This document shows positions 9,396 through 14,868 of a stretch of DNA of 29,081 nucleotides, in pieces. Within the stretch, counting starts at the first letter, position 1. The number at the start of each line of letters is the position of its first letter. The stretch covers positions 186,001-215,081 of the forward strand of contig MU005984.1 in NCBI GenBank assembly GCA_010093745.1, read 5' to 3'. A program made the translations under genes and the position numbers. The notes below the pieces were generated by a model that was not told the DNA's origin, ran no database searches, and worked only from the letters and a program-made list of their open reading frames with translations. The DNA comes from Piedraia hortae CBS 480.64 (lineage: Eukaryota).

Positions 9396-10997
9396 ATGGC
9401 CGGTTCAGGTTCGGGTCCTACCCGTCGAAGCCACACAAAAAGCCGAAAAGGGTGCAGAACTTGCAAACGTCGACACATTCGTTGCGATGAAACTTTTCCA
9501 CAATGGTATTGATGCGGAACTCCTTGTCGTTGATTTCAACTAATCAAATAGTCGAAACTGTACAAAGCATCGCGTCCAGTGTGACTACAGCCAATCAATA
9601 ATATCTGATGGTGAAGGCACGCAATCTCCAGATCCCCCAGTGACGCTCACTCCCGGCGCTGAATCTCATGTCGACCAATGGCAGCAGACCGGCAAATTTC
9701 CCTACCCAGACTTACAGATGCATCCTTCTCCGCCCGCTCACCAGTACAGTTGCACTGAGTTGCACCTCATCCACCACCTTTCGGTGATTACCCACCAGCT
9801 CCATCGCAATGGCACCAGTCACCTTGCTCTTTGGACCCAAAGAATGCCGCATCTTCTCAGCATAGCTTCGGTTCACCCGATTGTCATGAATGCACTGCTT
9901 GCCTTTTCGGCAAGTCACCTTGCATGGGTGCACAACTCGGAAGAAACCCGCCGTCTCTCCCTGAATTACGGCAGCATCGCCCTCAACCGCCTTCACGAAG
10001 CTATCTGTTCTTTTTCTCAAGCCGACCCTGAGGTTGTCCTCGCAACTTCTATGCTACTTCTATGGCAAGCCACTGACTGGTATGCACCCAAATCGCCATA
10101 ATGACAGTCCAAGTGCTAATTCTTTGCAGGCGGAGCTGGTCATCACTAAGATCTGGTATCCAATCCATCCTCTGTGCTATGCAATCAACAAATAGTAGCT
10201 CACCCCTCGCCCAGCTCCTCACCGAAGAAGAAGCTCGTGCGGTGGCTTTCAATACCAACAAGCACACGACAACCGCACCCCCTGACCGTATCGCCATCCT
10301 GCAAGACCTTATAATGGCCACTAGCAGGCTCCATTCGTCTCTTCCCGGGAATGACATGGAAGCCGCTTGGATTCACCATTTGTGTGGCTATGTTGAGCAA
10401 CTACGAAATTTGGAGGCACCACGGACGGCTGAACAGCAATTTAACCTTCTATATCGACTCCGGAAATGGCTATTTTGGGTACCGGTGCTTCTCCTCCAGG
10501 CCGAGGCCCCTCAGAAGCCAACTCTGGCAGTTATTGCGCACTTTTATGCGGCCGCCATCGCTTTGGAACCCTTGTTTCCCAGCTTGGGATCATCATTCTG
10601 TGCATCCATGACCCTTTCGCCATTAGAAGCCATCATCAACTTGGTGGATGCTCCGGATTTAAAGAACCAAAGCGACATCTCAGGCACTGACATGACCGCA
10701 ATCATGCAATACCCCCGACAGATGGCCGCTCAATTCCGCAGTCAAACAGTGCAACCTGTGCTTCCGTTGGATCACACTTCCTATGGTTATACAAATGGTG
10801 TTGGCAATCTTAGTCCGGCTTTCAGCCCGGCCGCACCTCAATATGGGACCTCCTCTTCTTACCTTGACTTACCTTGCGGACAAAGTTCCTTTACGCTCAG
10901 CATGCAAGGATGGGGATCCCAACCGTCACCCGCCTTTCCACCCCCGACTTTTGCAATGGACGACTACAGTACTTTTACTGCTTCGGCTTGGACCTGA
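9396..10997 (+). CDS. Zn(II)2Cys6 transcription factor (Upc2-like DNA-binding domain plus fungal TF domain), 501 aa; join(9396..9505,9552..10079,10130..10997)
   Basis: Spliced N-terminus MAGSGSGPTRRSHTKSRKGCRTCKRRHIRCDETFPQC/RNCTKHRVQCDY contains all six Cys. Introns 9506-9551 (GTATTG..CTAAT..TAG) and 10080-10129 (GTATGC..CTAAT..CAG) join the 9640 and 10101 ORFs in frame. Confidence 0.93.
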
Positions 10998-11526
10998 TAT
11001 TGAGCTGCTTTTCACATTAGCGCTTGGATGAGAGGATAGGCTGCTCTGGAGTTTTTTTTTTCCTTTACAAGGTTTTCATGTTATGAAGTCGCAAAGGAAC
11101 TTGTAAGATTGGATGTATGATACATTTGAGCAATGCTGTCCGTTACATGAAATGCATAGCGTGCGGTGCTAACGAAAAGCAAGAGAGCGTCCTATAATTT
11201 TGTTCCCGCCAGTCATTTGAGAGAAACTCGCAACTTATGTGGTCGGAACATGCTTCTGAGTGTGTCCCAGAGTTCTGGATTTCTTCCATCAATGATAATG
11301 ATTGCTATGGTCCAGTTTTCTAGGGGGATATATAGTTTCCCAGCCAAGCAGCTATGCCATACAGTACGTGCAAGGTTCGGGCCGGTCCTAAAGCAAACAC
11401 AGTCCTATTAACCGGTGGCGTCCAAACAAGTGGGGAAGGTGGGGGTGAGGCACATGTTATGACGTTGCGGACTCACGACAAAATCCAACCGCCCCCACGT
11501 TTCCTTTTCTTTGCATAGAAGCAGTT

Positions 11527-12555
11527 ATGGCTGACCAAAAGATCACGGAAAAAGTCAGGCAGACTGCCAAGGAGGAAGCCGTGCATGTTCGCCAACTCGC
11601 AGAGCAGGGCGCCAAGTCAGGTGCTTACTTGTACCCGTTGCGCGTACGTGAATACTGCAACTCTGAAAACCGTTCTGACTCATTTCTAGGGTATCGTGTA
11701 TCTGCTCTCGCATGAGGACCTTCGCAGACCTCTAATTTCTCGCCTTGCATCGACTTTTACGTTGGGTATGGGAGTAACGACGTTTATGTTTCTCTTCACA
11801 TATGTGCCGCAAGTTGCAGCATTGGTGTTCACCAGTGGGCCACTGGCCGCATTGACTACTATCCTGCTGGTTTTGAGCGAGAGCAGCACACTCACGACGG
11901 TGTTGTCCCGCGCCCTGTTAATAGATGAAAGCTTGATTGACACGTTCGATGGGACGCTCGTAAGCAAGGGCGAGACAACGCTTGTCGCCAAAGAGCGTAA
12001 AGTCGCTTCAGGGCGAACGGCAGATTCCATTGCGAGGCTGGGGAAACTGGTTAAGAAGCCCTTCCAAAGATTCAGGCAAGCCTCTCTATTCATAATATAC
12101 ACCGCCACTAACTACTTCTAGTGAGTTGGGTTTACATTTTGCATTGACACGCTAACAATAAAGAACCTGAAGCCATTGTCCGGTACCTCATGTACTTGCC
12201 ATTGAATTTCATCCCCATCATAGGCACAGCGACTTTCATCCTTCTGCAAGGCAAGAAATACGGCCCACAAACCCATAATCGCTATTTTCAGCTCAAGGGA
12301 ATGAGTCGTTCGCAGCGCGAGCAATATATCCAAGAGAACCAAGGCGCTTACACCAGGTTTGTTCCACTCAATTTGACAACCAACTTTCCTAACAGTTGCA
12401 GCTTTGGCGTCGTCGCCACTCTCCTCGAGATGGTCCCTATTGCGGGCATCTTCTTCGTGTTTACCAACACCTGTGGTGCTGCACTTTGGGCAGCTGATTT
12501 GGAAAAGAGGGGTGGAACGGCGCCTCGACTCCGGGAAAACATCAGGGATTCGTAA
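11527..12555 (+). CDS. EI24-domain / Rrt8-Lds-like membrane protein, 282 aa; join(11527..11643,11690..12074,12164..12356,12402..12555)
   Basis: Motifs GAYLYPLRGIVY, LPLNFIPIIG, H-x-RYFQLKG and Y-T-SFG..LLEMVP..FFVFTNTCGAALWAADLE. Introns 11644-11689 and 12357-12401 are canonical; 12075-12163 requires nested splicing (see next feature). Confidence 0.88.
12075..12163 (+). other. Candidate [D1,2] spliceosomal twin intron (stwintron): inner GC-AG intron 12076-12121 splits the GTGAGT donor of a 43-nt outer intron
   Basis: TTC A|G[GCAAGC...ACTAAC TACTTCTAG]TGAGTT...GCTAAC AATAAAG|AA CCT GAA. There are two branch sites and two acceptors. Only two-step excision gives the in-frame product KKPFQRFKPEAIVRYLMYLP. 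Confidence 0.8.
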
Positions 12556-12892
12556 AAGGTGTTAGGGTCTATGCGAGAGCTTCCCGTTTCAAAGTGCTCA
12601 CAATACTGTAGACTTTCCAAAAGTGAAAAGATTTTTACAAAACAGTCTACGAGGTGTCGGGTAATGGAAAGGTCGCATAAGTGCCTAAACGGAGCAAAGT
12701 CTCACTAGACCTTGTCAACTTTTAGGCCATCTTGTTGGGCTATGCAGACTGGTGGTTTGGTACTGTCGTAACAGTCGGGCAAAAATGCTGCAAAGAGTCT
12801 ATACTCGAGACGAATGCTGAGAGGGACTTTGAAGGTCGGAAACTATGCTTTCATTCTGTGGGTGATACTCTACCCATATCATTCTTCGAATA

Positions 12893-14480
12893 CTAACAAA
12901 CTCCATGCGTCTTGCCATGCTTGCCCTTGAGGGAGTGCGTCTCGTTCGCAAAATGCGTATTGACGATACTTCCCGCCCTTTGCTTGCGAATAGCATTATC
13001 CAGCTCCATTGTTTCTTTGTGGACTTCCAGTTTTCTCTCGTCCATACGCTTCAATTCATCAAATGCCATGCGGATATCTTGCACCAAGGCATCGCAGCGT
13101 GAGCGAGAGAAGTCTTCCCTTACTACCACCCGCATCATCTTCAAGTGATTTGCATGCGGTGCCAAAGTATAGGCGGGTACGATCCAGCCACGACGACGCA
13201 AGTGGTGGGACAAGTCGAATTCGTCAAACTTGTGTCCGCCTTTAGGATCGAGGCGGAAGGCTACCAATGGCAAGCCGTTCCCGCGAGTGCTGGACATGAG
13301 GATGAATCCCAGTTTTTCGACTGTGGCGGCCAGATAATCGGCAGTGCGAGTAAGGTTCATCATGATGCTCCTGTACCCCTTTTTACCCAGCCGACACAAC
13401 ACATAGTACTGCGCGATGATTTGCGAAGCGCCGCGCGAAAAGTTGAGGGTGAACGATGCTTGGTCCGCACCGAGGTAATTGATGTTGAAGATGAGTTCTA
13501 GTCGGTTAGCAGAGCAACTGACCTAATTGAGGGAATTTTCTACCTTTGGGAAGAAACTCGGGGTCACGCCATACAACCCAGCCTACTCCCGGATAGCACA
13601 AGCCATATTTATGGCCTGAAACATTGATCGATACGACTTTGGGTAACCGAAAATCCCAAACCAGGTCGGGCTTCACAAAAGGCGCAACAAAACCTCCAGA
13701 TGCTGCATCAACGTGAATGGGGCAGTCAATTCCACGCTTCACCAGTAAATCATTCAAAGCCTTGACATTTTCATACTCTCCCGTGTAGGTCGTGCCGAGA
13801 ATGGCACAGATACCAATGGTGTTTTCGTCGATCAGCTTGACTGCCTCTTCTGGGTCGATGACATAACGCGACTCAGTGCAATAAACATACTTCTCCTCGA
13901 CATCAAAGTACCTGGCTGCTTTCTCCCAACAAACCTGGACAGCTGAGTTCATGATGATGTTCGGCTGAGAAAAGTCTTTACCAGCAGCTTTACGCAGCAT
14001 CTGCCAACGCTTCTTCATGGCGAGCGTCGCCAGCATAATGGCTTCCGAGGATCCCACAGTACTAGTGCCCATGGCATTCACAGTTTCATCATGCGTCGGT
14101 GCGTTGAAAAGTCGTGCAATCATGTTGACACAGCGGTTCTGGATATCAGCCGAAACAGGGTATTCCTCGTAATCAATGAAGTTCTTGGGGAAAGCTTCGA
14201 TCATAAGCTTCTCCGCCTCATCCTCCATGTACGTCGTGACAAACGACGCGAGGTTCAAGGTCGGCGTTCCATCCAGAGACAGATCATCTTTGATCATGCG
14301 GTACGCTACATGAGCCGGCATCTCATCCTCTGGCATCTCATGCCTGGGGAGATCTGCCAAGGCAAACCGCGAACCGTACACAGTCGACGTAAACTCATCC
14401 GGGGTTTGATCTAGGTCGGTTGCCTTTCCCAGCCCATCCCCATTGGTTTGTTTATCACTTGTAACGACGCCAAGAACCAT
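12893..14480 (-). CDS. GAD1: Glutamate decarboxylase (PLP-dependent), 513 aa; complement(join(12893..13497,13544..14480))
   Basis: Motifs [32 protein letters not shown] and the PLP lysine in [12 protein letters not shown] 46-nt intron at 13498-13543 (GTAGAA..GCTAAC..TAG) joins [15 protein letters not shown]. Confidence 0.95.
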
Positions 14481-14868
14481 TTTGGACTGTATGAAAGACT
14501 GCTTGTCAGTAGCTATCGAGAAAAGGAGGGGCTACACCTCGGCCCGGCCCTCCCCGGCTCTGGGCAGGGTTCTGGCGGGGTAGGTTACATCTGACAAATC
14601 AGATGCCACCAAGCCCTCATACGTAGCAGTTCGTCACTGACATTGGGCTGATATGCTGCCACCTTTTTCCGAGCATGCTGCATAGTTTCGTGGATCCGCT
14701 ACGAGTTTGATAATGATATGTTAACGGTTGCCGTGTTCCGGCAAATAAGTACATCACATAGATGGACACAAGGCCCATCTACCACGATTCTAGGCACAAT
14801 GAAAGCACCCTTATATAAAAATATACCAGGCACATGCTGACTATCTCCAATTATCAAGAGGCGTTGCC

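Follow-up and report, generated by a model that had tools for sequence, protein, structure and literature searches.

A probable [D1,2] stwintron with a GC-AG inner intron in an RRT8/EI24-family gene of Piedraia hortae

An 89-nt intervening sequence of Piedraia hortae CBS 480.64 (positions 12075..12163, + strand, of the window, i.e. the whole 29,081-nt stretch of DNA that was analysed) is best read, with a probability of about 0.8, as a [D1,2] stwintron located in an RRT8/EI24-family gene, where it was most likely gained in a lineage-specific manner. In mature RNA, nucleotide 12074 is joined to nucleotide 12164, all 89 nt are gone and the reading frame is restored. The arrangement of splicing signals within the element suggests that this removal would take two steps, with an inner intron leaving first.

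Stwintrons of the [D1,2] type are defined by two canonical reactions, the inner one first, with a G that ends the exon in the first reaction and begins the intron in the second (PMC12403724). They start with 5'-GGU '(occasionally, 5'-GGC)' and are catalogued as 5'-GGY-AG-3' (PMC9024468). A GGY..AG match whose bounding exons are correctly fused in RNA data counts as verified, and the splicing intermediate is held to be the stronger proof (PMC12403724, PMC9024468).

The host gene of this fungus (Dothideomycetes, order Capnodiales, family Piedraiaceae) occupies positions 11527..12555 of the + strand, from the ATG at 11527 to the TAA at 12553-12555. Candidate exons were joined by coordinates in a script and their translations compared, and a single open model emerged, consisting of exon 1 (11527-11643), exon 2 (11690..12074, ending in ..AGA TTC A), exon 3 (12164..12356, starting with AA CCT GAA) and exon 4 (12402..12555, stop codon included), which together encode 282 aa including ..KKPFQRFKPEAIVRYL... 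Intron 1 (11644..11689, 46 nt, GT..AG, with GTACGT, CTGAC and TAG) lies in phase 0 after R39, and intron 3 (12357..12401, 45 nt, GT..AG, with GTTTGT, CTAAC and CAG) lies in phase 2. A protein search with exon 2 retrieved a 100% identical protein from the same strain, K470DRAFT_258205 (P0001, 282 aa), and this deposited sequence equals the spliced translation of the four-exon model letter for letter, QRFKPEAIVRY included. The correct junction is thus already present in the public gene model, contrary to the initial annotation, which had anticipated that standard annotators would probably mis-model the locus.

The full-length protein matches PF07264 (EI24/CysZ) with 40.3 bits (cutoff 32) over residues 36-250, a segment that spans the junction at residue 168. 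Taken as single exons, exon 2 matches none of the Pfam families, and the C-terminal part reaches EI24 at E = 9.5e-5, under the cutoff. Many orthologues are called 'Outer spore wall protein RRT8' in their source annotations. From the Pfam score and the colinearity with these named orthologues, the gene is assigned to the RRT8/EI24 family, in agreement with its first assignment as EI24/Rrt8-like; set against yeast Rrt8 and the EI24-CysZ family (PF07264), the P. hortae protein stands above the gathering score, the names being those of the source annotations.

Evidence at the RNA level comes from assembled Logan contigs of a public run (X1) in which 60% of the words sampled from the locus occur and whose 'RNA?' label is a guess. 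The comparison of these contigs with positions 11300-12800 of the window yielded a single 1090-nt contig with a word depth of 836, which aligned in four pieces, among them exons 2, 3 and 4, with 0 differing letters. Its first joint (11643>11690) skips 46 nt bounded by GT..AG. The second (12074>12164) skips the 89 nt, bounded by GG..AG, with no letters fitting both sides, which is the apparent GG-AG intron that had been predicted for a spliced alignment and yields the predicted mature sequence RFKPEAIVRYL, also found in the deposited protein. The third (12353>12399) skips 45 nt, bounded by GT..AG if the cut is read three places rightward (12357-12401). As the contig lacks exactly the three introns of the gene, it derives from spliced RNA. 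It is the one X1 contig on this stretch and represents the mature form; no contig carries the intermediate, the dead-end form or the missplice that keeps one G, a silence without weight since contigs are assemblies that drop rare forms. X1 is possibly the data behind the public annotation, so that these two sources are not independent of each other, but both are independent of the inference made by the initial annotation. A template-switching artefact of cDNA synthesis was considered and rejected: the joint has no shared letters, it is the sole form at a depth of 836, and the resulting frame is colinear with 38 of 38 orthologues.

The X1 contig extends 65 nt past position 12800, so that the 3' UTR of the RRT8-like gene (12556 to about 12865, + strand) measures some 310 nt or more and ends no farther than about 30 nt from the stop codon (12893-12895) of a convergent neighbour on the - strand (12893-14531). 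This neighbour is a PLP-dependent decarboxylase (PF00282, glutamate-decarboxylase-like) whose two ORFs lie in different frames, with a putative 46-nt GT..AG intron (13543..13498, - strand; GTAGAA, GCTAAC, TAG) connecting them. The transcripts of the two genes may overlap at their 3' ends. Directly upstream of the RRT8-like gene, a 306-aa open frame (10077-10997, + strand) has no Pfam match at E <= 0.001.

The 89-nt element runs from GGC to AAG in phase 1, within codon K168, and all the coordinates and motifs of the [D1,2] anatomy proposed for it, including a GC-AG inner intron, were recovered in the sequence. G12075 is followed by a putative inner intron of 46 nt (12076..12121, GC..AG) with the donor GCAAGC (12076-12081), the branch element ACTAAC (12107-12112, branch A at 12111) and the acceptor TAG (12119-12121); this unit thus begins at the second nucleotide of the element, carries a DYURAY branch element and an HAG acceptor, and is longer than the floor of about 42 nt. 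The remainder of the outer intron (12122..12163) starts with TGAGT (12122-12126), continues to the branch element GCTAAC (12151-12156, branch A at 12155) and ends with the acceptor AAG (12161-12163), which is the acceptor used in the X1 contig. Removing the inner unit brings G12075 next to TGAGT, and this creates a canonical GTGAGT donor (G|URWGY), which together with the branch element and acceptor downstream delimits an outer intron of 43 nt. Starting with GGC, ending with AG and showing exact exon fusion in mature RNA, the element conforms to the [D1,2] definition on each of these points.

The size of the element is consistent with this composition. Indeed, it had been described as about twice as long as local introns, and the other two introns of the gene (46 and 45 nt) and the inferred intron of the neighbouring gene (46 nt) bear this out: with units of 46 and 43 nt, the 89 nt correspond to two introns of local size placed end to end and sharing one G. 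The inner donor departs twice from GURWGY (C at +2 and C at +6), and its context, CAG|GCAAGC, agrees with the consensus CAG|GUAAGU at 7 of 9 positions by our own count. Since 12076-12120 contains no GT, the lengths can be accounted for only with the GC at 12076 as donor.

We thus propose the following course of events. In a first step, the U2-type spliceosome would take out 12076-12121, using the GC donor in its strong context together with ACTAAC and TAG; G12075 would act here as the last base of the exon. In a second step, the same G12075, now the first base of an intron, would form GTGAGT with TGAGT, and the 43-nt outer intron would leave through GCTAAC and AAG, ending in the fusion of A12074 to A12164 that is seen in the X1 contig. 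This fusion restores the codon AAA (K168) and the conserved segment ..KPFQRF-K-PEAIVRY...

The one-step canonical alternatives fail, as had been argued from the letters, since all of them stop early on translation, and the frame is kept only when 12075-12163 is removed, giving ..QRFKPEAIVRYL.. (which contains RFKPEAIVRYL). Removal of 12076-12163 as a single intron yields RFRT followed by a stop. If the whole stretch is retained, translation stops after ..NYF, as it does on removal of 12121-12163, which would use the GTGAGT formed in the pre-mRNA by the G of the inner acceptor and TGAGT (12121..12126) with the acceptor at 12163 and runs into ..TTC TAA. Use of another inner acceptor, at 12125, was rejected on inspection, since the donor that it would create, G|TTGGGT, is poor. 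The [A2,3] route is blocked, as first stated, because base 12164 is an A.

Among the other explanations, excision of the 89 nt in one step, from a GG 5' splice site, fares best, although we consider it unlikely. What is observed at the RNA level is the mature GG..AG junction alone, which is compatible with one step as well as with two. To our knowledge, however, GG is not among the recognised 5' splice sites of U2-type introns. Moreover, this explanation leaves unexplained the complete second set of signals found inside the element at the right spacings, and it is for this reason that we rate it low. We searched the window on both strands with a regular expression that follows the published [D1,2] search model in a widened form, accepting GT or GC at the inner donor and spacings as short as those of this element: the only matches were 12075-12163 and a trivial variant starting at 12036 with the same downstream part. 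In 200 dinucleotide shuffles of the window, matching starts occurred at a mean of 0.205 per 58 kb, with at least one in 14.5% of the shuffles. When the 89-nt interior itself was shuffled with the terminal GG and AG fixed, none of 200,000 shuffles fitted the model, which indicates that the inner signals (remainder of the donor, branch elements, acceptor) are not to be expected in a plain GG..AG intron with this base composition. In addition, hundreds of GGY..AG elements with the same layout have been shown to pass through the intermediate (PMC9024468, PMC12403724).

The two-step reading places the P. hortae element close to the [D1,2] stwintrons described in Pezizomycotina by Flipphi, Fekete, Karaffa and co-workers, with which it shares the layout 5'-G|GY..HAG|URAGU..HAG-3', phase 1, seamless insertion and a composition of two minimal U2 introns. 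One example is the 99-nt [D1,2] stwintron of the A. nidulans gene lipS, in which the external intron, 46 nt long, has the structure G|UGAGU-25 nt-GCUGAC-6 nt-AAG (PMC5639578); the outer intron of P. hortae, G|TGAGT-24 nt-GCTAAC-4 nt-AAG, is built in nearly the same way. Unlike lipS, the P. hortae element has a GC rather than a GT inner donor, and it is 10 nt shorter. It is also shorter than the stwintrons of Hypoxylon sp. CO27-5, which measure 114-313 nt; the same article gives 42 nt as the floor for a U2 intron (PMC9024468). Given that the external intron of lipS is very close to the outer unit of P. hortae, a length of 89 nt, though small, still falls within the class. As for the GC inner donor, which the initial annotation had called non-canonical, 5'-GGC starts are already in print, so that it represents a noted variant and not a new one; their frequency is conveyed in the main text by the sole word 'occasionally', and the matches to GGC or to a GC donor in the supplement of the same article are primers, alignment fragments and exon flanks rather than a list of GC-start stwintrons (PMC9024468).

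The Xylariales provide a second point of comparison. Hypoxylaceae stwintrons are inserted seamlessly, with a predilection for phase 1 (PMC9024468), and sequence-similar stwintrons occupy new, species-specific positions (PMC12403724). The P. hortae element resembles these sister stwintrons of Hypoxylaceae and Xylariaceae in being seamless and in lying at a new position without orthologue match. It differs from the Xylariales sister stwintrons, which are repeated, internally symmetrical and carry near-terminal inverted repeats (NTIRE-10), in having no inverted repeats and in folding no better than its shuffles. Some [D1,2] stwintrons can alternatively be spliced as [A2,3], a process that uses the internal G|URAGU and needs a G after the last AG (PMC5639578, PMC9024468). 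With its GG start and internal G|URAGU, the P. hortae element looks like the [D1,2]/[A2,3] stwintrons of the Helminthosporium solani alternative oxidase and of a multidrug efflux pump gene but, unlike them, it is followed by an A at 12164, so that a route starting with the 3' unit runs into a dead end.

Another stepwise process is the recursive (ratchet-point) splicing of long introns in animals, where a 5' splice site is formed anew by the first ligation. The splicing proposed for P. hortae shares the stepwise removal and the regenerated 5' splice site with it, but here the donor takes its G from the last 'exon' base (an offset of 1 nt), the units are about 45 nt long instead of kilobases, and the splice sites would be paired by intron definition.

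The orthologues indicate where the element stands in the history of the gene. In an alignment of 38 orthologous proteins, there is no gap at the junction and the mean column identity is 68%; F167 and P169 hardly vary, whereas position 168 is T in most sequences and K in some. Metagenome contigs scanned with this 38-protein alignment gave 80 orthologous loci, and an intron at K168 was found in 0 of the 80, residues 156-180 being encoded by one unbroken stretch of 72 nt (75 nt in L010). Of these loci, 44 have intron-sized insertions elsewhere, mostly at or adjoining aa 39 and aa 231-233, where introns 1 and 3 of P. hortae lie; the other 36 resemble cDNA or copies without introns.

As no sampled orthologue has an intron here, the stwintron is most likely a lineage-specific gain. 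The time of this gain is loosely bounded, since the 44 intron-bearing loci partly repeat one another, several being the same sequence recovered from different metagenomes, and reach at most 63% identity in their best segment, and the sampled loci do not include close relatives (Piedraiaceae, Teratosphaeriaceae). Sporadic insertions were also seen near aa 50, 127/133, 198 and 215/225 in the metagenome loci; eight loci (L021, L054, L056, L058, L059, L060, L078 and L079) have such extra intron-sized insertions, near these positions or near aa 68. Being at lineage-specific positions, they show that intron positions turn over in this gene family.

The insertion of the stwintron was seamless, with no residues gained or lost. 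An origin by tandem duplication was rejected, the likeness of the inner and outer units being at the level of shuffles (z = 1.0). Neither unit resembles intron 1 or intron 3 (|z| <= 1.3), a search of the 29-kb window for similar copies of the element gave nothing but chance matches no longer than 14 nt, and no inverted repeats were detected in 12040-12200. A 9-nt direct repeat with one mismatch (12055-12063 and 12169-12177, 114 nt apart) flanks the stwintron; it does not fit the 89-nt element and was thus taken as a chance occurrence. A more speculative scenario, which we regard as unlikely when taken as a whole, would have the whole element gained in one event on the Piedraia lineage, at a site until then free of introns and by a propagation route with no need for terminal inverted repeats, as a minimal [D1,2] 'introner' of a genome-reduced member of the Capnodiales that might have sister copies in other parts of the genome, and whose GC donor would make splicing order-dependent and send part of the transcripts to NMD.

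A regulatory role had indeed been suggested at the outset, with a GC inner donor competing with the GTGAGT at 12121; in a fuller form of this idea, the weak donor would compete with the distal acceptor as well, and a tunable share of the transcripts would be directed to NMD. Both mis-splicing routes do lead to early stops, and Xylariales reads include transcripts in which the inner donor was spliced to the distal acceptor, with one G kept and the frame shifted (PMC12403724); the P. hortae equivalent would read RFRT and then stop. However, the 'ready-made' GTGAGT is no special competitor, as any G|GY..AG|URAGU layout has it (PMC5639578); being present in every [D1,2] stwintron, it is no sign of regulatory design. 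The position of the stwintron is moreover conserved in no sampled orthologue, which counts against a conserved regulatory role, and we judge such a switch quite improbable.

An assembly error inside the intron appears very improbable. Either a true T at 12077 (making the inner donor GT) or a true T at 12076 (making a single 89-nt GT..AG intron) could be imagined, as the interior of the intron is read from the assembly alone, the X1 contig being without it. The exon flanks, on the other hand, agree with the contig in all four pieces. An error at 12076 (G>T) would produce the poor donor GTCAAG and leave the perfect internal signal set still unexplained. The likeliest error, GC for GT at 12077 (C>T), would alter the GC detail alone and let the stwintron reading stand, and GC-start [D1,2] elements are in any case documented (PMC9024468). 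Lastly, structure-guided or non-spliceosomal excision was dropped, the element folding no better than its shuffles (MFE -11.4 kcal/mol versus a shuffle mean of -11.35; z = -0.02).

The P. hortae element is thus most probably a [D1,2] stwintron, a known though uncommon arrangement, in a species of the Capnodiales and a gene (RRT8/EI24) for which we found no stwintron report in the open literature. It leaves the knowledge of the splicing mechanism unchanged, and it offers a transcript-supported case in which an apparent GG..AG 'non-canonical intron' of a fungal annotation is better understood as a twin intron, one nested in the other. Of the new findings, the most useful is its gain at a site without introns in the sampled orthologues, within a lineage from which no stwintron report was found. 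As this gain was seamless and took place without the inverted repeats that are thought to aid propagation in Xylariales, it provides a small data point on the origin of new and twin introns.
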